DNA of 19,731 nt from a virus. Lineage: Duplodnaviria; Heunggongvirae; Uroviricota; Caudoviricetes. The stretch is from positions 1-19,731 of IMG/VR virus record IMGVR_UViG_2802429241_000007; one strand, 5' to 3'. The position numbers and the translations under genes are program-made. Below the pieces are notes generated by a model, which had not been told where the DNA came from, made no database searches, and worked only from the letters and a program-made list of their open reading frames with translations. The first letter of the stretch is position 1; every line of letters starts with the position of its first letter. Shown one piece after another: positions 1 through 18,178 of this stretch.

Positions 1-1266
1 ATGAAGCTCAGCGCCAGACAGGTCGAGACCGCAAAACCAAAAGATAAAACCTACAAAATGGCCGATGGCGGCGGTTTGTACCTTGAGGTTTCGGCCAAAG
101 GATCAAAATATTGGCGTATGAAATACAGACGCCCCTCTGACAAAAAAGAGGATCGCCTCGCTTTTGGTGTTTGGCCTACTGTGACGCTTGCTCAGGCAAG
201 AGCAAAGCGCGATGAAGCCAAAAAGCTATTAGTGCAGGGCATTGATCCAAAAGCCGAACAGAAAGAGGCTCAGGCCGAGAACTCGGGGGCATATACTTTC
301 GAAACCATTGCTCGTGAATGGCATGCCAGCAACAAGCGCTGGAGTGAAGACCATCGATCTCGCGTTCTTCGATATCTTGAGCTTTATATCTTCCCTCATA
401 TTGGTTCGTCCGATATTCGTCTACTCAAAACCAGCCACCTGTTAGCCCCAATTAAAAAAGTTGACGCTAGTGGAAAACACGACGTCGCTCAGCGCCTGCA
501 ACAGCGTGTAACGGCCATTATGCGTTATGCTGTACAGAACGATTACATTGACTCGAATCCGGCCAGTGATATGGCTGGTGCGCTATCTACAACCAAAGTG
601 CGACATTACCCTGCGTTACCTTCCTGCCGGTTACCTGAGTTTCTTGCACGTCTCGCTGCATATCGTGGTCGTGTAATGACACGGATCGCAGTCGAGCTTT
701 CCTTACTGACTTTTGTGCGTTCCAGTGAGTTACGTTTCGCGCGTTGGAATGAGTTCGACTTCGATAAAGCCCTTTGGCGCGTACCTGCAAAGCGGGAGGA
801 AATTAAGGGGGTGCGTTACTCGTATCGTGGTATGAAGATGAAAGAGGAGCATATTGTTCCGCTTAGTCGTCAGGCGATGAATTTGTTAGGCCAGTTGAAG
901 CAGATTAGTGGTGATAAGAAACTGCTTTTCCCGGGCGATCATGACGCAACTAAGGTTATGAGTGAAAACACAGTAAACAACGCATTACGGGCGATGGGAT
1001 ATGACACTAAAACCGAAGTTTGTGGGCATGGATTTAGAACGATGGCGCGTGGTGCACTGGGGGAGTCGGGGCTATGGAGCGATGATGCGATAGAGCGTCA
1101 GTTAAGCCATACAGAACGAAATAATGTACGCGCGGCTTATATCCATACTTCTGAGCATTTGGACGAACGTCGATTGATGGTACAGTGGTGGGCTGATTAT
1201 TTGGACGAGAATAAACTAAGAATGATAACACCATTTGATTACGGGAAAATATCTAATATAAAGTGA
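1..1266 (+). CDS. int: P4-family tyrosine integrase
   Basis: 421-aa ORF with ATG at 1. N-terminus MKLSARQVETAKPKDKTYKMADGGGLYLEV is typical of P4-type integrases. C-terminal region has HGFRTMARGAL (His-x-x-Arg box) and a Tyr in RAAYIHT. Sits at the element edge. Confidence 0.9.
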   Translation: MKLSARQVETAKPKDKTYKMADGGGLYLEVSAKGSKYWRMKYRRPSDKKEDRLAFGVWPTVTLAQARAKRDEAKKLLVQGIDPKAEQKEAQAENSGAYTFETIAREWHASNKRWSEDHRSRVLRYLELYIFPHIGSSDIRLLKTSHLLAPIKKVDASGKHDVAQRLQQRVTAIMRYAVQNDYIDSNPASDMAGALSTTKVRHYPALPSCRLPEFLARLAAYRGRVMTRIAVELSLLTFVRSSELRFARWNEFDFDKALWRVPAKREEIKGVRYSYRGMKMKEEHIVPLSRQAMNLLGQLKQISGDKKLLFPGDHDATKVMSENTVNNALRAMGYDTKTEVCGHGFRTMARGALGESGLWSDDAIERQLSHTERNNVRAAYIHTSEHLDERRLMVQWWADYLDENKLRMITPFDYGKISNIK

Positions 1267-1291
1267 GTTTATAAAAATCAACTTTTGAAGC

Positions 1292-1308
1292 GGGGGGATT
1301 CCCCCCCC
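1292..1308. terminator. GC hairpin between convergent int and cargo genes (possible bidirectional terminator)
   Basis: GGGGGG-ATT-CCCCCCCC dyad at 1292..1308, flanked by A/T-rich sequence on both sides, between the int stop (1266) and the minus-strand cargo gene stop (1323). Confidence 0.5.
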
Positions 1309-1322
1309 AACTTTTATAAAAA

Positions 1323-2216
1323 TTAAACATCTTCTCGACGTTTAGAGTTTGCGCGATATAGCGTTCTGGTTATATGGGATGTGAAATAGTCCTCATCTAA
1401 AAAATGCAATAATCTTTTTACATCTTTTCTTATTTGCGGCATTTTTATTTTTTCTAATTCACCGATTTTTTCAGTTTCTAGAACAACACCAATTTCAGCC
1501 GCTGATATTCTTAACTCAGTCACAGAGTAGTCCTCAAGTATTCTTGATTTATTAATCAAGGAAACTTTCTTTCTAATAACAGAGTCAGCAATTGTTGTTA
1601 AATCAAAACCCGGAGCTACTGAAAATTTTTCATGAGAAGAAAAACTTGTTAATTCTTCATTAGTGGCTTCTCTGAAATAAGCATCTACATCAAATATCCT
1701 GCGGAGCATATGGAAGCTTTTAAACTTTAATTCTGTACCTGCAAGAATAGCTGTTAGCTTATTGTCGATGACTATACCATGCTCAGTAGACTGGCAAAAG
1801 GTATTGCTTGCCTGAAATGGTTTTTGGAAAATTGTTCTTCTGTTATCAATAACTTGCCTTTTATCGAAGCTTTGGATTAAGGCAGTTGCAGGTTTTCCAT
1901 CCTCTTCAGGATAGCCTGAAAACAGAGCGATTATATTGAAGACTGATATTTCTTCCGGCTCCCATGGAGGGATAGTTGTGGGATTATTAATAGCATCTAA
2001 TACAGCGATAACATCATCAAAGTCAGGAATGACAAAAAACTCATCTCCACTAGTGATGTAGCCACCTGAAAATTCTACGCCTTCTGTATAGCGTTCTTCA
2101 AAAAAAGTTTTTTGTTCATTGAATAGCTGTGTGATTACATTTTGAGTCGGCCTGTCAGTAACAATTTTTACAATGCGTGTGCCAACTGTATTATCTGTTA
2201 TTGCAAACAATTCCAT
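1323..2216 (-). CDS. Hypothetical 297-aa soluble protein, second gene of cargo operon (candidate defence effector; KwaB-like by architecture only)
   Basis: ATG at 2216..2214 with AGGA Shine-Dalgarno 6 nt upstream. Start lies 8 nt after the stop of the upstream membrane-protein gene. AT-rich relative to the satellite backbone. No catalytic motif recognised by eye. Confidence 0.6.
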   Translation of the reverse strand: MELFAITDNTVGTRIVKIVTDRPTQNVITQLFNEQKTFFEERYTEGVEFSGGYITSGDEFFVIPDFDDVIAVLDAINNPTTIPPWEPEEISVFNIIALFSGYPEEDGKPATALIQSFDKRQVIDNRRTIFQKPFQASNTFCQSTEHGIVIDNKLTAILAGTELKFKSFHMLRRIFDVDAYFREATNEELTSFSSHEKFSVAPGFDLTTIADSVIRKKVSLINKSRILEDYSVTELRISAAEIGVVLETEKIGELEKIKMPQIRKDVKRLLHFLDEDYFTSHITRTLYRANSKRREDV

Positions 2217-2224
2217 ATTTATTC

Positions 2225-2740
2225 CTATATTGCTATATATGTGTAATCAGTAAGCTTAATCAAATTAACACGATTGCCTGATGCTTTTAATAGTGGCTTT
2301 TTCGATAATATAACAAAGCTTACGCCTGTATCGTCTTCGGCTTCATAATATTTATATCCCCAAAATGATAATAATGGGTTGAAACTGTAGGAACCTGAAA
2401 AACTGATGTAAAAAAATAAACTCACAGCAAAGAAAGAAGCAATCCTAATATCCATAAATGCATCTGGACCACTGATTAAGGGAAATAAATAGGTTAAGAA
2501 ATAATTTGTTATCTCCTTATCTGCTGGAGAAGCGGTGGTTAATTTTTTACTGGTTACAGAATTATATTTAATTGCGTATTTAACAATCAAAACACACAGT
2601 AAAAGTATAATTGCACACAATGATAAGTAAGCAATCATAAATTTATAGTGTTTTGATATACATGAAAGAAAAGCTAAGGTAAAAAATACCGGAGCAACTG
2701 AGCTGGCAGTAAGAAGATATTTGGCAAGCTTATTTAACAT
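2225..2740 (-). CDS. Hypothetical small integral membrane protein, about 4 predicted TM helices (KwaA-like by architecture only)
   Basis: ATG at 2740..2738 preceded by a strong AAGGAGG Shine-Dalgarno. Hydrophobic stretches YLLTASSVAPVFFTLAFLSCI, MIAYLSLCAIILLLCVLIV, NYFLTYLFPLI and IRIASFFAVSLFFYISF, then a roughly 60-aa soluble C-terminal tail. AT-rich. Confidence 0.65.
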   Translation of the reverse strand: MLNKLAKYLLTASSVAPVFFTLAFLSCISKHYKFMIAYLSLCAIILLLCVLIVKYAIKYNSVTSKKLTTASPADKEITNYFLTYLFPLISGPDAFMDIRIASFFAVSLFFYISFSGSYSFNPLLSFWGYKYYEAEDDTGVSFVILSKKPLLKASGNRVNLIKLTDYTYIAI

Positions 2741-2937
2741 ATTATCCTCCTTATCTGCCCTGGTATCTGTATATAAAAACAGTATAACATCAATTTAAGC
2801 ATCAAAGAAGATAATAAAAATCAATTAAATCATAATGATGCCTGCGTTTTTAAAGTGTGGGCTTTTGGAGGCGGGTAATGTACGCGCGTATTCCCTGGAG
2901 ATTCCATTTAAAAGGCTACGTATGTAGCCTCATGTAT

Positions 2938-3249
2938 TTAAGAGTACTGGCCCCAATCTCTGGCAATAAACCAGTTTGGCGTCCAGCTAACAAACTCTTG
3001 CGGATGAAAGTTTTGAGGGATTACAACTAGAGATACAATCGCTTCAGGTTGCAAACTGAGAACATGACTTTTTTTATCGCTTTCGTAATCCCAAAAATGG
3101 AATCTGTCACTTTTATCATGAGCTCTACGACTAGGACCGAAGTCCATAGGCGCAGTTAATCTTGTGATTGTCGCGTTATCTTCTTTTGAATAAAAAGTTA
3201 GCTGAATTTTTAAACAACTATGAATGGCATCAATGAATTTATCGCGCAT
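2938..3249 (-). CDS. Hypothetical 103-aa protein, orphan gene at the cos-proximal side of the cargo
   Basis: ATG at 3249..3247 with AAGGAG Shine-Dalgarno 6 nt upstream. Followed on the minus strand by a short GGCTAC-N4-GTAGCC hairpin and a 197-bp AT-rich gap before the next gene. No recognisable motif. Confidence 0.5.
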   Translation of the reverse strand: MRDKFIDAIHSCLKIQLTFYSKEDNATITRLTAPMDFGPSRRAHDKSDRFHFWDYESDKKSHVLSLQPEAIVSLVVIPQNFHPQEFVSWTPNWFIARDWGQYS

Positions 3250-3375
3250 ACGTTCTCCTTTGTAGTTACTAAATTAATATCCTCTATTGATAGATTATTG
3301 TGTGTGATCATTGCGGCATTTAATAAAACGTAATGAGTTCATTGTATTTTATTTATGTTATCAGCCTTGCGCGCA

Positions 3376-3394
3376 GTGCTTTCCCCGCCTCGCC
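3376..3394 (-). other. cos-like cohesive-end site (P2/P4 type)
   Basis: gtgctttccccgcctcgcc is the reverse complement of GGCGAGGCGGGGAAAGCAC, which I recall as the 19-nt P2/P4 cohesive end. It is followed by the GC-rich dyad ccgcccgctttgcggggcgg. Position between psu and the cargo genes matches the P4 map. Confidence 0.6.
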
Positions 3395-3495
3395 CGCCCG
3401 CTTTGCGGGGCGGTTTTAATGCAGTTGCACTGACACGCTCAGACCGCGCCGGGAATGGTGCGGTCTGCAGAAAATGAGGCAGGAAAACGCATGCA

Positions 3496-3528
3496 AAGCC
3501 ATGCACCTTATCGATGCATGGCTTTTTT
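3496..3528 (+). terminator. Rho-independent terminator-like hairpin between cos and psu
   Basis: Perfect 10-bp stem AAGCCATGCA / TGCATGGCTT with a 9-nt loop, followed by a T-run on the plus strand. It may also act on read-through in the other direction. Confidence 0.45.
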
Positions 3529-3558
3529 CAGTAAAAACGGGAGGATTTTCGGGGAATT

Positions 3559-4131
3559 TTACACAGACTGACGTGATGCCAGTTGCGCACTTTTACGCGA
3601 AAAAATCATGTTCTGCGCAGGGGTGAATTTTTCACGGCTGTCATCCACCGAAGCCGCGTCAGGCCTGAATCCGATGGTCGTTAAAATGTCGCTATCCTGT
3701 GCGGAATAATTAATTTTTTCACCCTTCGCAAGCCAGGACAGGAGGGCTTCACGCAGGGCATCTGTGGCACGCTGTATGGCACAGTTTCGGGCAATGGCCG
3801 TCAGCTCACTGTAGCCCATCAGCTCCGGTGCCAGTGCCGCCGCCAGTGCTGTGCCGTGCTGCTGCATAAAATCATTCAGCCGGTCGCGGATGCTGATGTG
3901 CTGAACGGCTTCATGCGAACGAATATAACGACCGGCGGCCTGATTCACCTGCCATTTTCTGACTTCGATAATATTGCGTAATTCGTCCAGGCGGCTGACG
4001 TTTCTGCCTTCTCCTGACAGAAGCCGCAGATATTCCTGTTCGGCCGCTGCCAGCTCATTTTTGCGTTGCAGCCATGCTGCTTTGTTATTCTGACAGGTGT
4101 CAAAGGCCTGCTGTAAGGCTGTGCTTTCCAT
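3559..4131 (-). CDS. psu: Psu-like polarity suppression / capsid decoration protein
   Basis: 190-aa ORF starting MESTALQQAF, last gene of the sid-delta-psu block next to cos. Length and position match P4 Psu as I recall it. Confidence 0.8.
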   Translation of the reverse strand: MESTALQQAFDTCQNNKAAWLQRKNELAAAEQEYLRLLSGEGRNVSRLDELRNIIEVRKWQVNQAAGRYIRSHEAVQHISIRDRLNDFMQQHGTALAAALAPELMGYSELTAIARNCAIQRATDALREALLSWLAKGEKINYSAQDSDILTTIGFRPDAASVDDSREKFTPAQNMIFSRKSAQLASRQSV

Positions 4132-4204
4132 CGTTATCTCTTTCTCATCATGCTGAAGAATAAAAATACGGTGTGCGGCGACGGCCGGGGTTAACCGGCA
4201 GCCC

Positions 4205-4705
4205 TCATTCCAGACGCAGCGAATATGATTGTGTTTTTAACCGTACTGGCGGCAGTTCCTGTTTTTCATGCAGGCGTTCTGCCAGTTCGTCCGGCGTGAC
4301 CGGGCGGACAATGAAGCGGGTGATGGTCTGAAGCGTTTTAAACACCAGACCACAGCCCGGATCCGTGCACACATAAAAACGCTCGGTGACTTCCTGAGAC
4401 AGACGCCGCGATGTTCTTGACAGCGCAAGGCCTTTACATCTCCGACAACAATATCCGGTAACAAGCATTCTTTTCGGGCGTTTCATACTGCCGGAGGCCG
4501 ACGTCAGTGAATCGCGGTATCTCTGTTTGCCTGAAATGTATTCCATTCCTGAATCTTTACTGTCAGAGAAAAAGCTTTCACTCGCTTCAAATGTCGCAGA
4601 GCAATAAATATTCCGGCACTGTGCAATCATTATCTTGGTGCCATCGTCCATGAAATGTGCGCGACGGGTGTGAGCAACATGTCCACACGACGGGCAGTAA
4701 ATCAT
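4205..4705 (-). CDS. delta: Delta-like late transcription activator (tandem Ogr-type zinc-finger domains)
   Basis: 166-aa ORF with two Cys-rich modules (CPSCG...C...C near the N-terminus, CCRRCKG and CTDPGCG further on). Start ATG overlaps the sid stop (ATGA). Confidence 0.8.
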   Translation of the reverse strand: MIYCPSCGHVAHTRRAHFMDDGTKIMIAQCRNIYCSATFEASESFFSDSKDSGMEYISGKQRYRDSLTSASGSMKRPKRMLVTGYCCRRCKGLALSRTSRRLSQEVTERFYVCTDPGCGLVFKTLQTITRFIVRPVTPDELAERLHEKQELPPVRLKTQSYSLRLE

Positions 4706-5436
4706 GACAGCAGTCCTCTGGCCTTAAGCTCTGCTCCCTGCTGGTCTATTTTGTCCTGCCACACCTTGCGCTGTGCCGGTGTGCCTGCCACCTCATAATC
4801 CATGTGCGGGAGTGTTGCCGCTGACAGTCCGGCCAGCCGGAGAACCGGCTCGCCGGTGAGGCTGATTTGCATCTGTTTAATTTTCTGTTCCAGCGATGAT
4901 TTCACCTGCTGCATGACAGCCTTATCGGGTGCGACGTAGCCCTGATGGCCGGTGGTGTTGGCGAGCGGATTTTCCTGTACCAGGATACTCAGATGCATTG
5001 CCCGGACAAGCGCCTCACAGGTTTCATTCAGGGCGTGTTCCAGCTCATGCTCTGCATACAGACTCAGAAGGTGATGATGTGCCTTCCGGTAGGCGGTGGC
5101 CGTGCTGTCACACGCCCCTTTCAGGCGTTCACGTTCGAAATTCAGCACCACGGCCAGATTGTCATATTCCTGTACCAGCTCCCGGCGTGCCACGCGCTCA
5201 ATGTGGCGCTGTTTCAGCTCGTCGCTCAGGACACCACCGGCTGCACGAAAGGCCGTGCGCCAGTCGTCAGCGTCGTTTCCGTCGGCCTGCGCCAGCGCAT
5301 TTTTTTCCTGCTCTGCCCGTTCAATGGCCGTGACGGTCTCATCCATCAGGCGGGCGTTCTCAAGATGGGCGGCTCTGGCCTTTTCCAGTTGTGCCAGCGC
5401 GGGTTGCAGATATTCAGGGATGGTGTTGTCAGACAT
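4702..5436 (-). CDS. sid: Sid-like capsid size-determination (external scaffold) protein
   Basis: The track ORF starts at GTG 5454. I place the start at ATG 5436..5434 (MSDNTIPEY...), which has a GAGGAG Shine-Dalgarno and gives 244 aa, the size I recall for P4 Sid. Ala/Glu/Leu-rich helical composition. Confidence 0.8.
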   Translation of the reverse strand: MSDNTIPEYLQPALAQLEKARAAHLENARLMDETVTAIERAEQEKNALAQADGNDADDWRTAFRAAGGVLSDELKQRHIERVARRELVQEYDNLAVVLNFERERLKGACDSTATAYRKAHHHLLSLYAEHELEHALNETCEALVRAMHLSILVQENPLANTTGHQGYVAPDKAVMQQVKSSLEQKIKQMQISLTGEPVLRLAGLSAATLPHMDYEVAGTPAQRKVWQDKIDQQGAELKARGLLS

Positions 5437-5470
5437 TTTCCGGCTCCTCGTCACTTCAGGTTAAGAAAAT

Positions 5471-5526
5471 TGTGACGTACACCGGACAACAACACGACGC
5501 ATTGCAGATGTGCCAGCCCTGACACA
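5471..5526 (-). promoter_or_regulatory. Candidate Psid late promoter with two TGT-N12-ACA activator dyads
   Basis: TGT-N12-ACA at 5471..5488 and 5509..5526, centred about 38 bp apart. This fits the -18 and -55 arrangement I recall for Delta/Ogr-dependent P4 late promoters if transcription starts near 5462, just upstream of sid. Confidence 0.45.
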
Positions 5527-5605
5527 GGAGACTCATCCTCAGACCGGCAAGCCAGGAAAAGGTCGCAGGAAAAACCTGCTTACTGTTTGTTTTTTTATGT
5601 TTTAC

Positions 5606-5709
5606 TGTTCACCTCTGTTCACCATAAGAAAAAAGATAAGTAATACAGTAAGTTAAAGGGTGAACAATCGCAGTAATGACTGTTCACCGTCTGTTCACCA
5701 CTGTTCACC
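5606..5709. repeat. Iteron cluster (TGTTCACC octamers), ori-like alpha-binding region
   Basis: TGTTCACC at 5606, 5616, 5681, 5692 and 5702, plus an inverted copy GGTGAACA at 5659. The same octamer recurs in the crr-like repeats after alpha. I recall this as the P4 type I iteron. Confidence 0.6.
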
Positions 5710-5867
5710 CGTTGATGAGCTTTTTGTGCTGTTTATTACTGTTTATTTTTATTAATTCACTGAAATAAATAAGAAAAAACAATTTGTATTTCACTATAAT
5801 TTTTTCCAGCTCCTTCCAGAGCGTTTTAAAGCTATCTGGCGCTGATGTGCAAAAAACACACAGCCAT

Positions 5868-5885
5868 TGTAAGGCTGCCGGAACA
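5868..5885 (+). promoter_or_regulatory. Candidate late-left promoter activator site upstream of vis
   Basis: TGT-N12-ACA dyad (tgtaaggctgccggaaca) about 100 bp upstream of the vis-like ATG. No clean second dyad at -18. Confidence 0.3.
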
Positions 5886-5987
5886 AATCCCCCCTGTTGC
5901 GTCTGCCAAAAATATTCACAAAATAAAGCGCTACCCGAAGCCGGACGGACTTATCCGGTGCTGTATGGACATTAACGAGGTAGCCCG

Positions 5988-6254
5988 ATGCAAGCTGTTT
6001 TTTCTTCCCCGTCTCCCGCCCCTGTGACGCCACTGATGCCGCTGCCGGACATCACGCAGGAGCGTTTTTTACGTCTGCCGGAAGTGATGCACCTGTGCGG
6101 CCTGTCACGCTCGACCATCTACGAACTCATCCGTAAGGGGGAATTTCCGCCGCAGGTGAGTCTTGGCGGTAAAAATGTGGCCTGGCTGCACTCTGAAATC
6201 ACCGCATGGATGGCCGGGCGCATTGCCGGACGCAAACGGGGGTACGACGCATGA
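5988..6254 (+). CDS. vis: Vis/AlpA-family small DNA-binding regulator (excisionase-like HTH)
   Basis: 88-aa ORF with the HTH core [30 protein letters not shown] typical of AlpA/Vis regulators. ATG preceded by GAGG. The 88-aa length matches P4 orf88 (vis) as I recall it. Confidence 0.7.
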
Positions 6255-6289
6255 TGATGCCCGCTCTGCAAAAAGTCCCTTTTTCTGGC

Positions 6290-6319
6290 TTGCCTTTTTC
6301 CGGCATTTGCGGATATAGT
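6290..6319 (+). promoter_or_regulatory. Candidate sigma70 early promoter (PLE-like)
   Basis: TTGCCT (6290..6295), 18-bp spacer, TATAGT (6314..6319), oriented toward the early operon and upstream of the repeated leader elements. Confidence 0.3.
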
Positions 6320-6346
6320 TTTTCCGCTGTCGCAAAATCGGCAGCC

Positions 6347-6625
6347 GGGCGTAGGAACCCGTGTAACTCGAAGGCGACATATGACGCGCCATGCGTCTTT
6401 TTTTGTGTCGCAATCAACGCCACAGAGCGCCAGATTATGGTTTGCCGTGCAGGTATGATCCTGTTCGCAATCGCATGTTATGCCACTGAGTCAATGGTAG
6501 CTCAGGCGGGGCAGCCTCCGGGCTGGCCGGTATTCTTCGAGGCCGGTATTCCTACCCCCGTCTGGGCTATCGCCATCGAGCGTAGGAACTCCGGCGATAG
6601 CAGTTATTTGCTACTCGAAGGAGAC
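6347..6625 (+). ncRNA. Candidate RNA-immunity leader (seqA / seqB / seqC-like elements, CI-RNA-like region)
   Basis: GTAGGAAC...CTCGAAGG occurs twice (6349..6374 and 6580..6623). Between them, CTTCGAGGCCGGTATTCCTAC (about 6538..6556) is complementary to both arms. The second copy overlaps the Shine-Dalgarno of the first early ORF. Confidence 0.35.
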
Positions 6626-6631
6626 TGCCTT

Positions 6632-6829
6632 ATGGCTACAACCCTTACCCCCTCACACCCTGAATTTGTCTTTGTGTTTGCGGCTGTCCGTCGCGCAGAC
6701 CGTCATCCCCGTATCTGCATGCTTCGCACCGTCGCCGGTGATGAACGCAGTGCCCGCCGTTCCCTTGTCCGTGACTATGTGCTCTCCCTTGCTGCCCGTC
6801 TGCCGGTGGTGGAGGTGTCCCGTGCGTAA
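6632..6829 (+). CDS. Small hypothetical protein (65 aa), first ORF of the early operon (kil-like position)
   Basis: ATG at 6632 with AAGGAG Shine-Dalgarno 8 nt upstream. The long track ORF 6206..6829 is otherwise implausible because it runs through the RNA-leader region. Confidence 0.35.
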
Positions 6830-7109
6830 TAAAAAAGCCCCTCAGACCGTCTCAGCGCGTCATGACGCCCGTGAACACCTCAGCATTGAGGCTTACCATA
6901 AGCTCAACCGCGCCAGCGCCGTATCCCAGTTTGTTGGGGGTGATTTGATTCACCGTGAACTCTCCGGCCTGCATCAGCTCTACATTCCGCATATTTTCAG
7001 CTACCTGAATGAAGATATTGATTTTGTGCTGAATGAGCTGAAAACCAAAGGCCTGTGCCGCGATTTTCTCGCCCAGCAGAAAGACCGGGGAGACAGGACG
7101 CATGTTTGA
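6822..7109 (+). CDS. Hypothetical 95-aa protein (epsilon-like by position and size)
   Basis: GTG start at 6822 with GGAGG 6 nt upstream. The start overlaps the preceding stop and the stop overlaps the next start (translational coupling). Confidence 0.45.
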
Positions 7110-7557
7110 TTTTCCCCAGCCCGGTGAGATTTACCGTTCTGCCGGTTTTCCCGATGTGGCCGTGGTCGGCATTCTGGAAGACGGTATTCCGTGGGAAATG
7201 CCGTACCGCTGCCCGGACATTGTCTGGAACCCGTACCGCCGTAAATTCAGTATCCTTGTGCGTATCCTCGCTGACGGGCGCACCACAGACATCCCGCTGG
7301 GGCGTTTTCTGCGGGAATTTACCTGTGACCGTCCTGACCTGTTCAAACGCAGCCCCGTAAACCGGCATGCGGTACTGAAAGAAATGGCCGGAGACCCGGA
7401 ATTACAGAAATGGCGGGAGAAATATCTGGATATTTACCCGCAGGACCCTGTTCCGGTCAGCCGGGCGGCACCGGTGGCGCGGGAATGGCGGGAAATTCCC
7501 CGCACGGAGCCTGACCCGGAAATCACCCCGGATAACAGTTACCGCAATTATCTGTAA
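7102..7557 (+). CDS. Hypothetical 151-aa protein (same size and position as P4 orf151)
   Basis: ATG at 7102 overlapping the upstream stop, GGAG upstream. No motif recognised. Confidence 0.6.
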   Translation: MFDFPQPGEIYRSAGFPDVAVVGILEDGIPWEMPYRCPDIVWNPYRRKFSILVRILADGRTTDIPLGRFLREFTCDRPDLFKRSPVNRHAVLKEMAGDPELQKWREKYLDIYPQDPVPVSRAAPVAREWREIPRTEPDPEITPDNSYRNYL

Positions 7558-7692
7558 TTAAAAAACGACACCCGAAAAATTAAATGTGCGTATTCGCGCA
7601 GGGATACGCACGTCTTCAGGAGACGCAGATATGCCTTATCAGTTAATGCAACCGGCACGGAATGCAGTCATCTGTCACAGGGAGGAAAGCAA

Positions 7693-8013
7693 ATGAAAAC
7701 ACCCTTACCGCCCGTCTTACGCGCAGCCCTTTACCGTCGCGCTGTCGCCTGTGCCTGGCTGACCGTGTGCGAACGTCAGCACCGCTACCCGCATCTCACC
7801 CTTGAATCACTGGAGGCGGCCATCGCCGCTGAGCTGGAAGGCTTTTATCTGCGCCAGCACGGTGAGGAAAAAGGGCGTCAGATAGCCTGTGCCCTGCTGG
7901 AAGATTTAATGGAATCCGGCCCCCTGAAGGCCGCGCCGTCGCTGTCCTTTCTCGGGCTGGTTGTGATGGATGAACTCTGTGCCCGTCACATAAAAGCGCC
8001 GGTACTGCACTGA
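7693..8013 (+). CDS. Hypothetical 106-aa protein (same size and position as P4 orf106)
   Basis: ATG at 7693 with GGGAGG Shine-Dalgarno. Immediately upstream of alpha. Confidence 0.6.
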
Positions 8014-8027
8014 AGGAGAACAACACC

Positions 8028-10361
8028 ATGAAAATGAACGTAACCGCCACCGTCAGCCATGCGCTCGGCCACTGGCCGCGTATTCTCCCGGCACTGGGGA
8101 TTCAGGTGCTGAAAAACCGTCATCAGCCCTGTCCGGTCTGTGGCGGGAGTGACCGCTTCCGTTTTGATGACAGGGAGGGGCGCGGCACCTGGTACTGCAA
8201 TCAGTGTGGTGCCGGTGACGGCCTGAAACTGGTTGAAAAGGTGTTTGGTGTCTCCCCGTCCGACGCGGCCGCAAAGGTGGCTGCCGTGACAGGCAGCCTG
8301 CCCCCGGCTGACCCGGCAGTGACGGCTGCCGCCGTTGCTGAAACAGAAGCTGCCCGGAAGAACGCTGCCGCACTGGCACAAACCCTGATGGCAAAAACCC
8401 GTCCCGGAACCGGTAACGCCTACCTGACCCGCAAGGGCTTTCCCGACCGGGAATGCCGGATGCTGACCGGCACACACAGAGCCGGTGGCGTGAGCTGGCG
8501 CGCCGGTGACCTTGTGGTGCCACTGTATGACGACAGCGGCGAACTGGTTAACCTTCAGTTAATCAGTGCTGACGGCCGTAAGCGCACCCTGAAAGGCGGA
8601 CAGGTCAGGGGCACCTGTCACACCCTTGAAGGACAGAATCAGGCCGGAAAACGTCTGTGGATAGCGGAGGGATACGCGACCGCACTTACCGTGCATCACC
8701 TGACCGGTGAAACGGTGATGGTGGCGCTTTCTTCCGTGAACCTCCTTTCTCTGGCCAGCCTTGCCCGGCAGAAGCATCCGGCCTGTCAGATTGTCCTTGC
8801 CGCAGACCGTGACCTCAGCGGTGACGGCCAGAAAAAAGCCGCCGCAGCCGCAGATGCGTGTGAGGGCGTTGTTGCCCTGCCGCCGGTCTTCGGTGACTGG
8901 AATGATGCCTTCACGCAGTACGGCGGGGAAGCCACCCGTAAGGCCATTTACGATGCCATCCGGCCACCGGCTGAAAGCCCGTTCGACACCATGAGCGAAG
9001 CGGAGTTTTCCGCCATGAGTACCAGCGAAAAGGCCATGCGTATCTATGAGCATTACGGCGAGGCGCTCGCGGTCGATGCCAACGGCCAGCTTCTGTCCCG
9101 CTATGAAAATGGTGTCTGGAAGGTGCTGCCGCCACAGGACTTTGCCCGGGATGTGGCCGGGCTGTTTCAGCGGCTGCGTGCGCCGTTCTCCTCCGGGAAG
9201 GTGGCCTCCGTGGTGGACACCCTGAAGCTGATTATTCCGCAGCAGGAAGCCCCCTCCCGCCGCCTGATTGGCTTTCGTAACGGTGTGCTCGACACACAGA
9301 ACGGCACGTTCCACCCGCACAGTCCGTCACACTGGATGCGTACCCTGTGCGATGTGGATTTCACCCCGCCGGTGGAAGGGGAAACGCTGGAAACCCACGC
9401 TCCCGCGTTCTGGCGCTGGCTTGACCGTGCTGCCGGTGGTCGTGCGGAAAAACGCGACGTGATTCTGGCCGCACTGTTTATGGTGCTGGCAAACCGCTAC
9501 GACTGGCAGCTCTTTCTGGAGGTGACCGGTCCCGGCGGCAGCGGCAAAAGTATCATGGCCGAAATAGCCACCCTGCTGGCCGGGGAGGATAACGCCACGT
9601 CGGCCACCATCGAGACGCTGGAATCCCCGCGTGAACGTGCCGCGTTAACTGGCTTCTCACTGATACGCCTGCCGGACCAGGAAAAATGGAGCGGCGACGG
9701 TGCCGGACTCAAGGCCATCACCGGCGGCGATGCGGTGTCCGTTGACCCGAAATACCGGGATGCGTACTCCACGCACATCCCGGCGGTGATTCTGGCCGTG
9801 AACAATAACCCGATGCGCTTCACCGACCGCAGCGGCGGCGTGTCACGCCGGCGGGTGATTATTCACTTCCCGGAACAGATAGCCCCGCAGGAGCGCGACC
9901 CGCAGCTTAAGGACAAAATCACCCGCGAGCTGGCGGTCATCGTGCGTCACCTGATGCAGAAGTTCAGCGACCCGATGCTCGCCCGGTCACTGCTTCAGTC
10001 CCAGCAGAACTCAGACGAGGCACTGAACATCAAACGGGATGCCGACCCGACGTTTGATTTTATCGGCTATCTGGAAACCCTGCCGCAGACCAGCGGCATG
10101 TATATGGGGAACGCCAGTATCATCCCGCGTAATTACCGTAAATACCTCTATCACGCCTATCTGGCCTACATGGAGGCAAACGGCTACCGGAATGTACTCA
10201 GTCTGAAAATGTTCGGGCTGGGGCTGCCGGTGATGCTGAAGGAATACGGACTGAATTACGAGAAGCGCCATACCAAACAGGGGATACAGACCAACCTGAC
10301 GCTGAAAGAGGAAAGCTACGGCGACTGGCTGCCAAAATGTGACGACCCTGCAACAACCTGA
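8028..10361 (+). CDS. alpha: Alpha-like replication protein (zinc-binding primase, TOPRIM, helicase with Walker A)
   Basis: 777-aa ORF with AGGAG Shine-Dalgarno. N-terminal CPVCGG...CNQCG zinc motif and Walker A GPGGSGKS. Length matches P4 alpha as I recall it. Iterons on both sides. Confidence 0.9.
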   Translation: MKMNVTATVSHALGHWPRILPALGIQVLKNRHQPCPVCGGSDRFRFDDREGRGTWYCNQCGAGDGLKLVEKVFGVSPSDAAAKVAAVTGSLPPADPAVTAAAVAETEAARKNAAALAQTLMAKTRPGTGNAYLTRKGFPDRECRMLTGTHRAGGVSWRAGDLVVPLYDDSGELVNLQLISADGRKRTLKGGQVRGTCHTLEGQNQAGKRLWIAEGYATALTVHHLTGETVMVALSSVNLLSLASLARQKHPACQIVLAADRDLSGDGQKKAAAAADACEGVVALPPVFGDWNDAFTQYGGEATRKAIYDAIRPPAESPFDTMSEAEFSAMSTSEKAMRIYEHYGEALAVDANGQLLSRYENGVWKVLPPQDFARDVAGLFQRLRAPFSSGKVASVVDTLKLIIPQQEAPSRRLIGFRNGVLDTQNGTFHPHSPSHWMRTLCDVDFTPPVEGETLETHAPAFWRWLDRAAGGRAEKRDVILAALFMVLANRYDWQLFLEVTGPGGSGKSIMAEIATLLAGEDNATSATIETLESPRERAALTGFSLIRLPDQEKWSGDGAGLKAITGGDAVSVDPKYRDAYSTHIPAVILAVNNNPMRFTDRSGGVSRRRVIIHFPEQIAPQERDPQLKDKITRELAVIVRHLMQKFSDPMLARSLLQSQQNSDEALNIKRDADPTFDFIGYLETLPQTSGMYMGNASIIPRNYRKYLYHAYLAYMEANGYRNVLSLKMFGLGLPVMLKEYGLNYEKRHTKQGIQTNLTLKEESYGDWLPKCDDPATT

Positions 10362-10377
10362 CCCTCATGACCCACCT

Positions 10378-10402
10378 GACCGGCATCTGCCGGTCTTTTT
10401 TT
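10378..10402 (+). terminator. Rho-independent terminator after alpha
   Basis: GACCGGC-ATCT-GCCGGTC stem-loop followed by TTTTTTT, 17 nt after the alpha stop. Confidence 0.65.
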
Positions 10403-10418
10403 ATCCCTGAATTCCCCG

Positions 10419-10512
10419 CAGGTGAACAATCCACTGTTCACCCTTCACCGTATATTCACCCGTTATCACACTGAAATTAAAAGAGAAAAACGAAAGGTGA
10501 ACAGTGTGAACA
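10419..10512. repeat. crr-like direct repeat, copy 1 (iteron-containing)
   Basis: 94-bp unit beginning caggtgaacaatccactgttcaccc and ending gaaaggtgaacagtgtgaaca. Contains TGTTCACC/GGTGAACA octamers. Confidence 0.65.
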
Positions 10513-10598
10513 ATCAAATCAAAAAAAACTTTTTTCTTCCTGAGTGATTTCAGTACGGGGGATTAATCACCGGTATGAGTCACACCGGCAGAATGCCG

Positions 10599-10692
10599 GA
10601 GGTGAAGAATCGAATGTTCACCCTTCACCCATTATTCACCACCTATCACTATGAAATAAAAGGAGAAAAAAGAAAGGTGAACAGTGTGAACA
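10599..10692. repeat. crr-like direct repeat, copy 2
   Basis: 94-bp unit closely matching copy 1 (gaggtgaagaatcgaatgttcaccc...gaaaggtgaacagtgtgaaca). Confidence 0.65.
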
Positions 10693-10906
10693 GTTCTTCC
10701 GAAAAAAAATTTTTTATGTGGATAAAAGATGCACTGGTTTGGATCCGAACTACGGATCCAAACTTACTGATTAAAAATTATTTAACTTTCCGATTTGTTG
10801 ATGGGCTGAAAATAGATTGGTCAGAAAAACAGTGGGGGCACAAAAGGGGGCATATTTCATTGTTGTGTTTTATTATTTGTTTTTTATCATTGACTTATTT
10901 TGATGT

Positions 10907-10927
10907 TTGAGTCCGGCCTTCGCACCA
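10907..10927 (+). other. att-like partial repeat of the tRNA-Leu 3' end (distal boundary of the satellite)
   Basis: GTTTGAGTCCGGCCTTCGCACCA closely resembles the 3' end of E. coli tRNA-Leu leuX (GGTTCGAGTCCGGCCTTCGGCACCA, from memory), the P4 integration target. Two differences, so either a degenerate copy or imperfect recall. Confidence 0.5.
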
Positions 10928-11560
10928 TACCGTATGCAAATCGAGTCGCTCAAGGGCGGCTTTTTTTGTATATAAAATCTAGTATCCGTAAGGCTTTCCT
11001 CGCTTTTTCACGTAACCTAAGTCAGCCAACTTTAATCTACATTAACTTATTGATGGCGAGTGCCTCTGCTGGTATTTCCCGGTTAGATAATATTTGTTCT
11101 CACACGAACCCTCTGAAAGGATATTCATTGTGGCTCTGAGTGATGTGAAAGTTCGTTCGGCAAGGTCTGAGTAAAAGCTTATAAACTACCGGATAGTGAA
11201 CTATTAATAAAAGCGATACGGGGCTATCTGGAATACCCCGGCAACATGCCGCTGCCTGAACAGATTACAAATGTCGCTGTATTCGAAGATGTGTATCGTT
11301 TCCTGTTGAATGGTTCCGGTGGCTGGAGCTGCGCCGTACTGATGTGGCAGCAGTCCGTGTCTTCCTTTAGAATTATCGATATCGCCATTGTGATGCAATA
11401 GGTAAACCGCAGCGCCTCATTTCTGCCGTGTGCCGGATCATTGCTATCGAACCAGGCACCAACGTGCTGTAGTACATCGTTCTGCTAATGATGCGGAGAG
11501 GGGATATGTATCGTAAGAATTATTTTGTAATAAATCTAATGAATCCAACATAGGGTAAGA

Positions 11561-11588
11561 ATAAAAGGGTAGGCCACGAAACCTACCC
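11561..11588 (-). terminator. Rho-independent terminator after the methyltransferase gene
   Basis: On the minus strand: GGGTAGG-N8-CCTACCC followed by a T-rich run, 8 nt after the methyltransferase stop. Confidence 0.5.
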
Positions 11589-11595
11589 TGTATGG

Positions 11596-12849
11596 TTATC
11601 TTTTATTTATCTTATCTAAAAGATGTACCACAGATTTGCCAACAGCAAATGACAGATTAACAGGAACAGCATTTCCTATTTGCTTATATTTCGCTGACAT
11701 TGGGCCTTCAAATACCCAGTCATCGGGGAAGGTCTGTATTCTTGCATACTCACGCACAGTTAATGGTCTTGTTTCTTCTGGGTGGCAACGCTCTGTTTGT
11801 TTCTGTGCTGGGGCGCATGTTAATGTTAGGCTTGGTTCATCCCATGACAAGCGACGAGCCATACCAGTTTTGCCCCCTCCTAAGTAAAAACTCTTGAGCA
11901 TGTATTCTTTTTGAATATCTTCTGGAAGATCTCTCCAATAGCCACCGGGAGGAACCATACTTAGGATCTCTGCTTTTCTTTTGGGATATTTTTGTCCCTC
12001 AGATTCTGGCACGTCGCTATCGTACAAGTCTCCCTTTTTTAATGCATCTTTAAGGGTTAATATTTTATTGTAAGAAGAAGGCCACTCATAATCGATGCCA
12101 TCAGCAAGATCATTTCTTACAGCTACAATGATCAAACGCTCTCGTTTTTGCGGCACTTTGTAGAAAATAGCCTTAAGTACTCTTGGCTCAAATAAAGTGT
12201 AGCCCAAGTCTGTGATAATATTTTTTATTGTTTCTAAAGTTCGCCCATCATCATGATTTAGCAACCCTCGAACATTCTCTGCTAAAAGAACTTTCGGATT
12301 GACTTCTTTAGCTGCTCGGGCGAATTCAAAGAAAAGGGTGCCCCGTGTGTCTTCAAAACCAAGTTTTTTGCCTGCATAAGAGAATGCCTGGCAAGGAAAG
12401 CCACCAGCCAGCACATCAACGGTATTCCTATAAGGAGTGAAGTCTACTTGGCTCACATCGCCTTCAACCACATTCCATTCAGGCCTATTTTTTCGTAACG
12501 TCTTACAAGCATGGGAGTCAATTTCATTTAGTAAAACAGATTTTAAACCTGCTTTTTCCAAACCTAAAGCCATCCCCCCTGCGCCAGCAAATAACTCTAA
12601 TACAGTATAAACATTATTGCTAATTTTAGTCTCATCAGACCACTGGCTTTTAAATAAAAACTGAGCTTGTTCAAAATTTTTAAGTTGCTCTTTTTTATAA
12701 AATCGATAGTTGTTTTCGTCATTTCTTTGAGAAACTAATTTTCCAGCAGTATCCCAACGCCTTAAAGTTTCTTTTGAAACACCCAAAATGTCTGCAACTT
12801 CTGAAAGTGAAAATTCTTCCTTTAACATATTTAGTAACCATGCCAACAT
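11596..12849 (-). CDS. DNA (cytosine-5)-methyltransferase with N-terminal HTH domain
   Basis: Canonical C5-MTase motifs: I LFAGAGGMALG, IV GFPCQAFS, VI ENVRGLL, VIII QKRERLIIV, X GNAVPV. N-terminal roughly 50 aa looks like a MerR-type HTH (SLSEVADILGVSKETLRRWDTAGKL). Start may be ATG 12849 or the ATG 21 nt downstream (MLKEEF). Confidence 0.85.
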   Translation of the reverse strand: MLAWLLNMLKEEFSLSEVADILGVSKETLRRWDTAGKLVSQRNDENNYRFYKKEQLKNFEQAQFLFKSQWSDETKISNNVYTVLELFAGAGGMALGLEKAGLKSVLLNEIDSHACKTLRKNRPEWNVVEGDVSQVDFTPYRNTVDVLAGGFPCQAFSYAGKKLGFEDTRGTLFFEFARAAKEVNPKVLLAENVRGLLNHDDGRTLETIKNIITDLGYTLFEPRVLKAIFYKVPQKRERLIIVAVRNDLADGIDYEWPSSYNKILTLKDALKKGDLYDSDVPESEGQKYPKRKAEILSMVPPGGYWRDLPEDIQKEYMLKSFYLGGGKTGMARRLSWDEPSLTLTCAPAQKQTERCHPEETRPLTVREYARIQTFPDDWVFEGPMSAKYKQIGNAVPVNLSFAVGKSVVHLLDKINKR

Positions 12850-12908
12850 TAGTCATGGTTACTACTGTATGAGTTTACATGTACTTTGTCAAACGTTGAT
12901 CATGGTTA
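12833..12908. promoter_or_regulatory. Candidate operator: CATGGTTA boxes around the methyltransferase start
   Basis: AGTAACCATG (12833..12842) and CATGGTTACT (12854..12863) form a 10-bp inverted repeat with an 11-bp spacer that contains the ATG at 12849. A third CATGGTTA box lies at 12901..12908. Confidence 0.35.
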
Positions 12909-13628
12909 TCAGCCGTAAGCGAGCCCAAAATACTTAATAAAACTATCTTTATCAGGGATGGAAAAGCCTTGCTGCCCAAGACGCTCGCTCAAAATATACT
13001 CAATTGCGTGAGGAAGAGCACTATGGAGTTCTTGTAGAGCATCTGGTCTGCCTGTGACAAGTTCATAGAAGCTCGCACCATCAATGATTCGAATTTTAGG
13101 GTTCGAAGGACACAGAGTACCGCTACCTTTATTGGAAGGGGTAAAAGGGATGTCATATCTGATAGGTTTACGAGGGATTATATTAACAAAGTACGCGCAG
13201 TAATCCTTAAATCGGCTATGTTTCGGTGATACTAACTCATCTAAACCTTTATACTTATCTGCTAAATCCCCGCCAGTAACCGTTGAGTATTTATTTTTCA
13301 CCTCAGCGATGATTCTTCTCTCTTCATTGAGAAGATCAACGATGCCACCAATCCCCATATCCCGCCATCCTTCAACATGGCCGAGGATTTTTTGGTGAAA
13401 AGTACCAACATGATTTTGAATGGTTTTCTGTCGTTGTCGTGCGAGTTCGGAGTTTCGCCACTCTTCATGGGATGAGAACCCTGGAGCTTCAAAAAGTGCG
13501 CCAAAAGGGTCAATCACATTGCTGGTAAAAGTCTTCTCAGCGGCGTCTTTTTTCTTTTTAGCTTTCGTTAATAAGGTTTCAACTTCGTTAAAAAGATCTT
13601 CATCACTGATATATTCAAGTAATGACAT
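12909..13628 (-). CDS. Putative type II restriction endonuclease (PD-(D/E)xK-like), upstream partner of the methyltransferase
   Basis: 239-aa ORF with ATG at 13628 and GGAG upstream, co-directional with and 59 bp upstream of the C5-MTase. Candidate catalytic core IVD...(12 aa)...AEVK is consistent with PD-(D/E)xK. AT-rich. Confidence 0.5.
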   Translation of the reverse strand: MSLLEYISDEDLFNEVETLLTKAKKKKDAAEKTFTSNVIDPFGALFEAPGFSSHEEWRNSELARQRQKTIQNHVGTFHQKILGHVEGWRDMGIGGIVDLLNEERRIIAEVKNKYSTVTGGDLADKYKGLDELVSPKHSRFKDYCAYFVNIIPRKPIRYDIPFTPSNKGSGTLCPSNPKIRIIDGASFYELVTGRPDALQELHSALPHAIEYILSERLGQQGFSIPDKDSFIKYFGLAYG

Positions 13629-14662
13629 AGTTGTATCTCCATCATTCTTTATAATTCAATAAATTTTTCGCGTAATAACCTTTGGGAGCTATTGTGGTTA
13701 CGGCTAATTACACGACAGCTCTCAAAAACGACACTGGAGCAAGTTTTCTAATCATAACGATTACAGACATAGATTAAAACGATCAATGAGCACTTAAAGA
13801 GAGGGGGGGTTGTGGTGTGATCTGAATGGCTTGTGCTGAGGATTCGAGCAATATGTTACGGGGATAGGGGATTGAAGTGGCACACTGAATTTGGCTACCT
13901 GAACAGAGGTGATATGCTCACCTCTGAATCTGCTCGTTGATTTTGTTCAGCAAACTATTGAGCAGGAAATACAACGTTACGGCAACCAGTACCGCAGTTT
14001 TGCGTGTCACCAGTTGATGAGTTAAAAATGGGAGAGGATGAGTTGGCGAATAATCCTCTCTACCAGATACGCTATCAGCAGTTTGTTTCTCCAATGGTGT
14101 ATGGAGAACGAAAGATCACATGGGATGAGGCTTACTCCAGGTTTAGGAGCTTAGCGTTAGCCATCCTGAATGCTTGATATGCAGCATTTGTCTTTATTTG
14201 AAATTCCGATAAACATCGTGAAGCGTTAAAGTACCGACTGATTATTCAGTTTGTTGATTTTTCAGAGAATCGCGCTGAGTATACATGTGAATATACAAAG
14301 TGATTTTGGCTATGAAATCACATTTATTTCAATGAGTTATCTTTTAAAGAGCAGCCCAGTCTTCACATCAATAGACGTCAACTGAGGTCTTTTTTTATGC
14401 CTGAAATCCGCGCCACACAAATCTTTTCCGCTGTTTTTTCCAACTAACGTCAACCTGGTTCAATCCATATTAAATCCCTGAAGAATACCGAACCAAGTAT
14501 GTTTGCGCTTATCTATTAAGGATTCGGCTCTTTCAGAAAATCTAATCCATCCTCCAGGCACAATATTTATTGCGATCGTGCTCGCATCGTGGACAATGTT
14601 TAATCATAAGTAATATTTACATCAATGAAATCAATGATTTCTATTATGTCACGGAATGGAAA

Positions 14663-17600: not shown

Positions 17601-18178
17601 CGCGAGGGTTATTGGCAAAATTTCTGTTTGCTTCAGATAATAATGCGTTGCAATTTGAGTTTCAGAAACGGCAGGATTTAAGTTCCGCACAGACACAAAT
17701 TTCAACGTTGCATGGTGTGGAGCAGCATGATGAATTTTTGAATAATGCTCTGGCCGCAGCTCAACAGAAGATCACGATTATTTCCCCTTGGTTATCCTGG
17801 CAAAAAGTGGAGCAAACGGGTTTTCTTGCGTCGATGGCTCTGGCCCGTTCCCGGGGTATTGATATTACCGTGGTAACGGATAAAAACTGCAATATTGCGC
17901 ATGTCGATGATGATAAGCGCCAGGAGAAACTGCATCTTCTAAATGATGCAGTCGAAAAGCTCAATAATATGGGCATTGCTACAAAATTGGTGAATCGCGT
18001 TCACAGCAAAATTGTGATTAGAGATGAGGAGTTGCTGTGCGTTGGATCTTTTAACTGGTTCAGTGCTGCGCGAGAAGATAAATATCAACGATACGATACG
18101 TCTTTGGTGTACCGTGGCGAAGGCGTAAAAAATGAAATAAAGGCGATATATAGCAGTCTGGATCAACGTCAGCTATAA
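14663..18178 (+). CDS. Upf1-like SF1 helicase fused to a C-terminal PLD-family (HKD) nuclease domain; candidate single-gene defence protein (Mokosh type II-like)
   Basis: Walker A GPPGTGKT (15542..15565), Walker B DEAGQ (16751..16765), helicase motifs [28 protein letters not shown] and [18 protein letters not shown]-terminal HSKIVIRD-x6-GSFN is a textbook HxK-x4-D-x6-GSxN PLD signature (18002..18055). The track ORF starts at TTG 14570; the first in-frame ATG is 14663. About 290 aa N-terminal to Walker A (from ATG 14663) has no motif I recognise. Confidence 0.8.

Follow-up and report, generated by a model that had tools for sequence, protein, structure and literature searches.

A probable P4-type antisense RNA immunity leader with its own recognition sequences in a satellite prophage of Escherichia coli

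The stretch of DNA analysed in this study (hereafter the window; 19,731 nt, positions 1 to 19,731 of the IMG/VR virus record IMGVR_UViG_2802429241_000007, Caudoviricetes) carries ahead of its early genes a leader in which one composite sequence appears twice, with a complementary segment between the two copies. The initial annotation, made from the letters alone, placed this arrangement at 6347–6625 and read it as the logic of P4 CI RNA immunity, in which a small RNA pairs with sites in the nascent early transcript. The locus therefore raises the question of whether it is an immunity leader of the P4 kind and, if it is, whether it shares the specificity of P4. The elements that carry the complementarity are the following.

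6351–6374, + strand: arm 1, the upstream target, composed of a1 (GUAGGAA, 6351–6357) and b1 (CUCGAAGG, 6367–6374); pattern search, pairing and covariation.
6534–6541, + strand: recognition element b' (UCUUCGAG), located in the second inner hairpin of the small RNA, within its 12-nt loop; pairing and covariation.
6549–6555, + strand: recognition element a' (UUCCUAC), in the single-stranded 3' junction of the small RNA; pairing and covariation.
6582–6621, + strand: arm 2, the downstream target (seqC in P4, a2/b2 in P1), composed of a2 (GUAGGAA, 6582–6588) and b2 (CUCGAAGG, 6614–6621); pattern search and covariation.

The composite pattern GTAGGAAC-N(4-30)-CTCGAAGG had exactly two matches in the 19.7-kb window (6351–6374 and 6582–6621, both on the + strand), with 0.01 expected by chance and two matches in 0 of 200 shuffled sequences. 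Its reverse complement, CTTCGAG-N(4-12)-TTCCTAC, had a sole + strand match at 6535–6555, between the arms (0.00 expected). These expectations and the shuffles rule out a chance repeat. Base-by-base pairing gave the same picture: the a block (GUAGGAA in a1 and a2) forms 7 bp with UUCCUAC of a', and the b block (CUCGAAGG in b1 and b2) pairs with UCUUCGAG of b' through seven Watson–Crick pairs and one G-U pair, so that the complement to both arms spans 6534–6555. The two direct-repeat arms and the complementary middle segment that had been described were thus recovered by both approaches, and 6347–6625 encloses all of them; the sole refinement is that the final C of GTAGGAAC lies outside the pairing. 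Within the window CTCGAAGG is limited to the two arms, which rules out additional target sites elsewhere in it. An extra copy of GTAGGAAC is present at 2387–2394, within the Kiwa gene region, and is compatible with chance.

Related loci were collected from species-representative genomes and IMG/VR viral contigs using a pattern in which only the two GCCGGTAT stem segments were fixed and the loops could vary. Of the 43 genome hits, eight fell in unrelated bacteria by chance and were left out (L006, L019, L021, L023, L025, L028, L043 and L045). The alignment comprised 37 sequences; the pooled set comprised 151 full-flank regions (102 distinct sequences), 149 of them with a recognisable downstream target.

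Folding and an Rfam covariance-model search, which the initial annotation had named as a check, identified the RNA families involved. Positions 6150–6900 matched C4 (RF01695), IsrK (RF01394) and c4-a1b1 (RF03163), all on the + strand, and no other Rfam family at E ≤ 1, which rules out a riboswitch or another type of leader. A tRNA/tmRNA search of the window found none; the attachment-site tRNA lies outside it. The complementary segment between the arms lies within a small RNA gene.

6490–6577, + strand: gene for the C4 antisense RNA (CI RNA in P4); RF01695, 74.4 bits against a gathering threshold of 45, E = 3.6e-13.

The C4 model was matched over its full length (1–87 of 87). A 17-bp closing stem (6495–6511/6556–6572) encloses two hairpins, 6512–6525 and 6526–6547, and the minimum-free-energy structure (−48 kcal/mol) reproduces the fold of the Rfam model. 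All 17 pairs of the closing stem were paired in 100% of alignment cells, with five of them changed on both sides; in the first inner hairpin, two of five pairs were changed on both sides, while the second, prescribed by the search pattern, gives no information on covariation. The R-C-C motif that follows the stem (GCC, 6572–6574) is conserved in the alignment. The two exposed elements, the b' loop and the a' junction, are complementary to a2 and b2, which precede an Icd-like ORF and overlap its ribosome-binding site. A small RNA of roughly 70 nt had been anticipated; the RNA itself is supported and its size needs revision, since homology to the annotated 77-nt P1 C4 RNA, from which the ends are taken, predicts a mature RNA of ~77–79 nt (about 6496–6574). 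The P4 CI RNA is 69 nt long. Both the P4 CI and the P1 C4 RNAs are processed by RNase P (PMC5499578), and by analogy the RNA described here would be excised from the leader in the same way.

Upstream of the small RNA gene, arm 1 is embedded in a second RNA module with its own putative promoter and a terminator.

6290–6319, + strand: sigma-70 promoter-like site (TTGCCT, 18-nt spacer, TATAGT), a consensus match and counterpart of the P4 constitutive early promoter PLE.
6326–6403, + strand: leader module of the IsrK/P4 seqA type; RF01394, 69.4 bits against a gathering threshold of 50.
6383–6404, + strand: intrinsic terminator GACGCG-CCA-UGCGUC followed by U7, directly past arm 1; terminator prediction and conservation.
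6405–6489, + strand: variable spacer between the terminator and the small RNA gene, poorly conserved and of varying length in alignments.

The promoter-like site is the single match within 5900–7200, with a predicted start near 6326. Its sequence is the same in P4, and across related loci the TATAGT box is kept, as is the TTGC within the −35 box; as a consensus match it is a putative promoter. The IsrK model begins 7 nt past its −10 box. The module consists of a hairpin (6326–6345), a second hairpin (6346–6361) with a1 in its loop, the single-stranded b1 and the intrinsic terminator. Its assignment to IsrK rests on the score above gathering, the two 5' hairpins and the terminator, which was detected independently. 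The hairpins covary (36 distinct sequences), hairpin 1 being changed on both sides in six of seven pairs; the T-run of the terminator is invariant, and its closing stem pair switches from G-C to C-G in 13 of the 36 sequences. The family c4-a1b1, defined as the a1 and b1 targets of C4 antisense RNA, matched at 6313–6365 with 44.6 bits, just below its gathering threshold of 46.7; P4 itself, at 44.1 bits, likewise falls short of this threshold. Despite this score, complementarity and covariation identify arm 1 as the upstream a1/b1 target copy. Spacer lengths differ between loci mostly by multiples of 3, which fits an overlapping reading frame.

This frame, eta, and the gene nested at its end follow arm 2 or run across it.

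5988–6254, + strand: alpA/vis-like excisionase-regulator gene (P4 orf88), directly upstream; PHROG 2790, E = 3e-17, and the position of P4 ORF88.
6251–6829, + strand: eta-type long ORF, 192 aa, in frame with kil; translation and an equivalent RefSeq CDS.
6632–6829, + strand: kil/Icd-like ORF, 65 aa, first translated gene of the early operon; NCBIfam NF033153 (phage_ICD_like), E = 1.6e-21.

The initial annotation had noted that arm 2 lies over the Shine-Dalgarno sequence of the first early ORF, and the coordinates bear this out: b2 (6614–6621) overlaps AAGGAG (6618–6623), followed by the ATG of kil at 6632. Kil has 100% identity to its P4 counterpart, and in almost every related locus arm 2 is followed by a homologue of 63–67 aa. 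The eta frame begins in an ATGA overlap with the alpA/vis stop codon (6251–6254), spans the putative promoter, both RNA modules and arm 2, and ends together with Kil. The same nested eta/kil arrangement is found in P4 and in E. coli 042, and the frame upstream of kil is open for more than 100 codons in most related loci. In RefSeq, the equivalent of eta is a 196-aa CDS named 'Icd-like protein'. We considered the long ORF at 6206–6829 as an over-called gene and dropped this interpretation; its frame is conserved and corresponds to P4 eta.

The wider neighbourhood identifies the element that carries the leader.

1–1266: integrase.
3559–4131: Psu.
4205–4705: Delta.
4702–5454: Sid.
6822–7109: epsilon.
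7102–7557: orf151.
7693–8013: orf106.
8028–10361: alpha primase-helicase.

P4 gene order is kept around the locus (int, psu, delta, sid, alpA, kil/eta, epsilon, orf151, orf106, alpha), and positions 6200–6900 align with P4 8097–8818 at 91% identity and 100% coverage (blastn). Every part occurs in P4 in the same order: promoter, seqA/IsrK-like module with its terminator, CI/C4 RNA, seqC over the kil Shine-Dalgarno sequence, nested eta/kil, epsilon, orf151, orf106 and alpha. The P4 immunity region itself scored 74.9 bits with C4, 60.8 with IsrK and 44.1 with c4-a1b1, and the published equivalences are the same, C4 being the P4 CI RNA and the IsrK-like RNA being P4 seqA (PMC3632133, PMC4825925). 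The element differs from P4 in a spacer that is 21 nt shorter and in the cargo of the int-psu hotspot, which is a Kiwa system in the window and gop/beta/cII in P4. The element lies in an E. coli chromosome, next to yjhR and a nanS-like gene. The P4 comparison made in the initial annotation is therefore supported by the identity to the P4 immunity region, the C4 and IsrK matches and the gene order. We consider it very probable that a P4-like satellite prophage of an E. coli chromosome has its immunity leader at 6290–6631, a region orthologous to P4 PLE-seqA-cI-seqC, and that this leader acts by repression and termination. The system, the P4 CI/C4 antisense RNA immunity module, is already known; the locus is ordinary except for its recognition sequences and implies no new mechanism.

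The specificity of P4, in contrast, is not shared, and the window carries a different immunity type within the family. Its recognition elements are UUCCUAC (a') and UCUUCGAG (b'), those of P4 UUCUCAC and CCUGUGAA. Across the 88-nt RNA there are six differences (6534, 6537, 6538, 6541, 6552 and 6553), all in the loops, four in b' and two in a'; by simple arithmetic, the chance that six changes all fall within 15 of 88 positions is ~9e-6. Each of the six is matched in both arms by a complementary or wobble-compatible change. Predicted duplexes of the window RNA reach −24.6 and −30.6 kcal/mol with its own arms versus −9.3 and −15.4 kcal/mol with the P4 arms, absolute values being inflated by the inclusion of stem bases; cross-duplexes with P4 are predicted to be 12–16 kcal/mol weaker than cognate ones. 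Because the recognition sequences differ and both arms compensate each change, the element is probably heteroimmune to P4.

Compensation of this kind was also observed across related loci. In the 37-sequence alignment, the 15 pairs between arm 1 and the loops were paired in 98.9% of cells, nine of them with double changes (slid controls, 40–55%), and the 15 pairs between arm 2 and the loops in 99.3%, ten of them with double changes (slid controls, 33–49%). The internal helices of both RNA modules (44 pairs) behaved alike, with 98.9% of cells paired and 14 pairs with double changes against 29–43% in slid controls. In the pooled set, perfect complementarity to the loops (G-U allowed) was found for arm 2 in 149 of 149 loci and for arm 1 in 145 of 149. 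The loci display 26 (a', b') combinations drawn from 4 a' and 16 b' sequences, and the b' of the window occurs with three different a' types. Another loop type among the loci is CCGUUAGA/UUUCCAC. Both genomes that could be tested for co-resident elements carry elements of different types (L017/L027 and L029/L041). The modules of 6290–6631, their homology, their complementarity and their co-evolution are thus directly observed.

These data also decide whether the repeats might be a feature of a protein, with a repeated peptide (...RRN...) in Eta and only fortuitous pairing potential with the middle segment. In favour of this explanation, the eta frame is open throughout, is conserved in frame across loci and has a RefSeq CDS. 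In every one of the 26 types, however, arms and loops have changed in step as reverse complements, a pattern that selection on the protein cannot explain. The Eta residues encoded by the arms vary freely (RRN/NSK in the window versus REN/NSQ in P4), and the covariance-model matches and stem covariation indicate RNA structure. We rejected the protein explanation on this covariation and regard it as scarcely credible. It is also very improbable, although somewhat less so, that the module is a decayed relic in a cryptic prophage, no longer in use. Many P4-like genomic elements are degraded, and two related loci (L103 and L120) have a damaged b2 site; in the window, by contrast, all parts are intact with mutually perfect matches, the P4 core genes are full length, and the same loop sequence is kept elsewhere, its exact 30-nt segment being present in 145 of 5,426 complete E. 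coli genomes.

The mode of action of an RNA immunity leader of this type can be drawn from P4. There, the small RNA pairs with seqA and seqC, which leads to premature termination (PMC4825925); immunity controls the translation of Kil, and termination ensues (Forti et al. 1999, as summarised in PMC10111431), a Rho-dependent terminator downstream being used when kil is not translated (PMC10111431). Transcripts from the late promoter escape, as eta, translationally coupled to alpA, is translated across the region (Forti et al. 1999, in the summary of PMC10111431). From the work on P4, P1 and N15, one would expect processing, translational block, Rho-dependent termination and an immunity phenotype here as well.

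In such a scheme, the constitutive promoter at 6290–6319 would start a transcript near 6326, of which the first 78 nt would form the IsrK/seqA-type module, with a1 in a hairpin loop, b1 single-stranded and the intrinsic terminator at the end. Since a transcript meets this terminator before it reaches the RNA gene, the small RNA must come from read-through transcripts, and the C4/CI RNA (~6496–6574) would be cut out of them, as is done in P4 and P1 by RNase P and 3' trimming. Through its b' loop and a' junction, the stable small RNA would then pair with a2/b2 (6582–6621) on later transcripts and hide the kil Shine-Dalgarno sequence, leaving kil untranslated. The naked RNA would be terminated ahead of epsilon (helper derepression) and alpha (primase-helicase), and the replication genes would be kept off. 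The proposal of the initial annotation that pairing at arm 2 could block translation as well as transcription agrees with this published P4 model, and the P1 record annotates a2/b2 likewise. The outcome would be maintenance of the prophage and immunity against superinfecting satellites with the same a/b sequences, whereas transcripts from the late promoter upstream of alpA would escape because the eta frame (6251–6829) is translated through the region.

Pairing with a1/b1 would provide a second, upstream contact, and of all steps of the mechanism this one, the role of arm 1, is the least secure. The full leader folds with z = −4.1, and in its predicted minimum-free-energy structure arm 1 is paired in cis to the loops. 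In three natural chimeras (L044, L053 and L106), arm 1 is non-cognate to the RNA and arm 2 of the same locus; their existence means that pairing of arm 1 is not strictly required for persistence.

A different role for this module is described in Salmonella prophage Gifsy-1, where the IsrK-STnc1160-orf45-anrP locus likewise yields a short RNA that ends at a terminator and a longer transcript that reads through, together with a downstream RNA that is processed and has complementarity to IsrK (PMC4825925). The short RNA activates translation of orf45/anrP there, and prophage induction follows (PMC4825925); the output is activation in Gifsy-1 and repression and immunity in the P4 type, and the downstream genes differ too. 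By this mechanism, the short RNA 6326–6403 would mainly be a trans decoy for the C4 loops, on the long transcript or in free C4, freeing the kil Shine-Dalgarno sequence and turning the operon on. The 69.4-bit IsrK match of the module containing arm 1 and the conserved intrinsic terminator fit this description, as does the fold with arm 1 in cis, and arms 1 and 2, being direct repeats, would compete for the same loops. P4 genetics, however, name the CI RNA as the immunity factor and require seqA for the establishment of lysogeny (PMC3632133, PMC4825925), the window is 91% identical to P4 and not to Gifsy-1, and natural arm-1 chimeras persist. Activation as the main function is therefore unlikely. 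The two roles can coexist, and activation would more likely be an extra layer than a replacement for repression and immunity.

A C4-type RNA is also found in phages in which it controls other genes. P1 and P7 have the RNA family in common with the window (RF01695, RF03163), with a score of 68.8 bits for P1 C4, although P1 and the window are too dissimilar for blastn detection. The layout in the P1 GenBank record is exactly that of the window (a1 of 7 nt, b1 of 8 nt, C4 RNA of 77 nt, a2 of 7 nt, b2 of 8 nt), and in both b2 overlaps the Shine-Dalgarno sequence and ends 10 nt before the Icd-like start codon. P1 differs in that its promoters are under C1 control, its IsrK-type terminator module scores only 35 bits, and the controlled genes are the antirepressor genes ant1/ant2 rather than epsilon and alpha, which serve helper derepression and replication. 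The anti-immunity locus of the linear plasmid-prophages N15, phiKO2 and PY54, with a processed small RNA, icd and antirepressor genes, has blastn-level similarity to the IsrK-like and C4 segments of the window, and its Icd-like ORF is 44–50% identical to Kil. N15 scored 78.8 bits with C4 and 62.4 bits with IsrK, and its record annotates a rho-independent terminator at the matching position. The locus in these phages controls an antirepressor and no satellite replication operon. In the window, no antirepressor gene (ant) of the P1/P7/N15 kind lies downstream, where epsilon, orf151, orf106 and alpha are found instead. This sets the locus in the P4 subtype, apart from the P1/N15 subtype, and leaves its membership in the RNA family unaffected.

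One further structure is conserved.

6566–6601, + strand: conserved alternative helix between 6566–6574 (3' end of the C4 closing stem) and 6593–6601 (spacer past a2); a 9-bp perfect inverted repeat.

The helix was paired in 99.1% of cells, with five of nine pairs changed on both sides (slid controls, 20–69%). It places a2 in an 18-nt loop and is mutually exclusive with the base of the C4 stem. In a joint reading, P4-like satellites would hold a large natural repertoire of RNA immunity specificities (at least 4 a' and 16 b' types), orthogonal to one another and maybe arising by concerted change at three sites, with the locus as one allele among them; the alternative helix (6566–6574/6593–6601) would be a switch, so far undescribed, that couples small RNA excision to exposure of the downstream target. 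We offer this reading tentatively, as one that is possible and falls short of likely. The searchable literature yielded no systematic description of the combinatorial specificity set or of an alternative-helix switch. The heteroimmune pairs P4/phiR73 and P1/P7 are old precedents for specificity variants; the variant specificity of the P4-like retronphage phiR73 was reportedly treated by Sabbattini and co-workers in 1996 (cited in PMC7567579).

For annotation, the finding matters because RefSeq has no RNA feature here; the 196-aa 'Icd-like protein' CDS covers the region in its place, so that the element governing whether a P4-like satellite is silent goes unlabelled in thousands of genomes. For the family, the locus is a clean natural case of three-site co-evolution, in which the loops of one RNA change together with two copies of their target. 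The 26 loop/target combinations could predict which satellites exclude one another, and a catalogue of these combinations could yield orthogonal riboregulator parts.

The 3' strand of the closing stem of the C4 RNA gene (the P4 CI-type antisense RNA, 6490-6577) can also pair with the spacer that follows the a2 site of arm 2, the target site lying over the kil Shine-Dalgarno. The two pairings located here are as follows.

6566-6574 with 6593-6601: alternative helix, perfect over 9 bp
6598-6602 with 6609-6613: small hairpin, overlapping the 3' strand of the alternative helix

The alternative helix and the base of the C4 stem are mutually exclusive. The helix is conserved: 99.1% of the sequence-by-pair entries were paired, and five of the nine pairs were changed on both sides. 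A similar pairing was recognized by eye in phage P1, between CCUGCCACC and GGUAGCAGG.

Natural mismatch variants occur among the related loci. In three of them (L044, L053 and L106), the specificity type of arm 1, the upstream target site, was unlike the type shared by arm 2 and the RNA of that locus. This mismatch suggests that recombination has occurred between the RNA gene and arm 1. The b2 site was degenerate in two others, L103 and L120. On the minus strand of one IMG/VR contig (L099), two C4 genes of a single type lay 2.6 kb apart (matches at 3154-3188 and 5771-5805); the pair may reflect partial duplication in tandem or an artefact of assembly.

The RefSeq annotation of the region that holds the immunity leader (6251-6829 in the window; 7052-7642 in the related locus L046) contains no RNA feature. 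The promoter, the IsrK-like module that carries arm 1 and the C4 RNA all lie under a single CDS of L046 (7052-7642), 196 aa long and annotated as "host cell division inhibitor Icd-like protein". This long frame over the leader (6251-6829 in the window) corresponds to P4 eta. Upstream of kil, the frame is open for more than 100 codons in most loci, and spacer lengths between loci mostly differ by multiples of three.

The window also encodes defense and restriction genes, together with two genes at its end.

1323-2740, minus strand: Kiwa defense system occupying the satellite's int-psu hotspot, comprising KwaB (297 aa; E = 6.5e-117 in PADLOC) and KwaA (171 aa; E = 1.6e-76)
11596-13628, minus strand: type II restriction-modification pair downstream of alpha and outside the P4 core, comprising a C5-cytosine methyltransferase (417 aa, MerR-type HTH at the N terminus) and an Eco47II-family endonuclease (239 aa)
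14570-18178, plus strand: full-length YjhR (1,202 aa), an SF1 helicase that also carries a PLD nuclease domain (PADLOC MkoC, 1466 bits)
18685-19731, minus strand: sialate-esterase-like gene with a SASA domain, adjoining the YjhR gene

The int-psu locus is the known defense hotspot of P4-like elements (PMC9122126). Two ORFs flanking the P4 core had no match in Pfam, PHROGs or PADLOC: 2938-3249 (minus strand, 103 aa) and 10575-10910 (plus strand, 111 aa), the latter also having none in NCBIfam.

Only two genomes in the sample contained two P4-like elements, namely Citrobacter youngae (L017 and L027) and Enterobacter intestinihominis (L029 and L041). Within each co-resident pair, both recognition loops of the C4 RNA, a' and b', differed. 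In these two genomes, the loop sequences are thus as heteroimmunity would predict.
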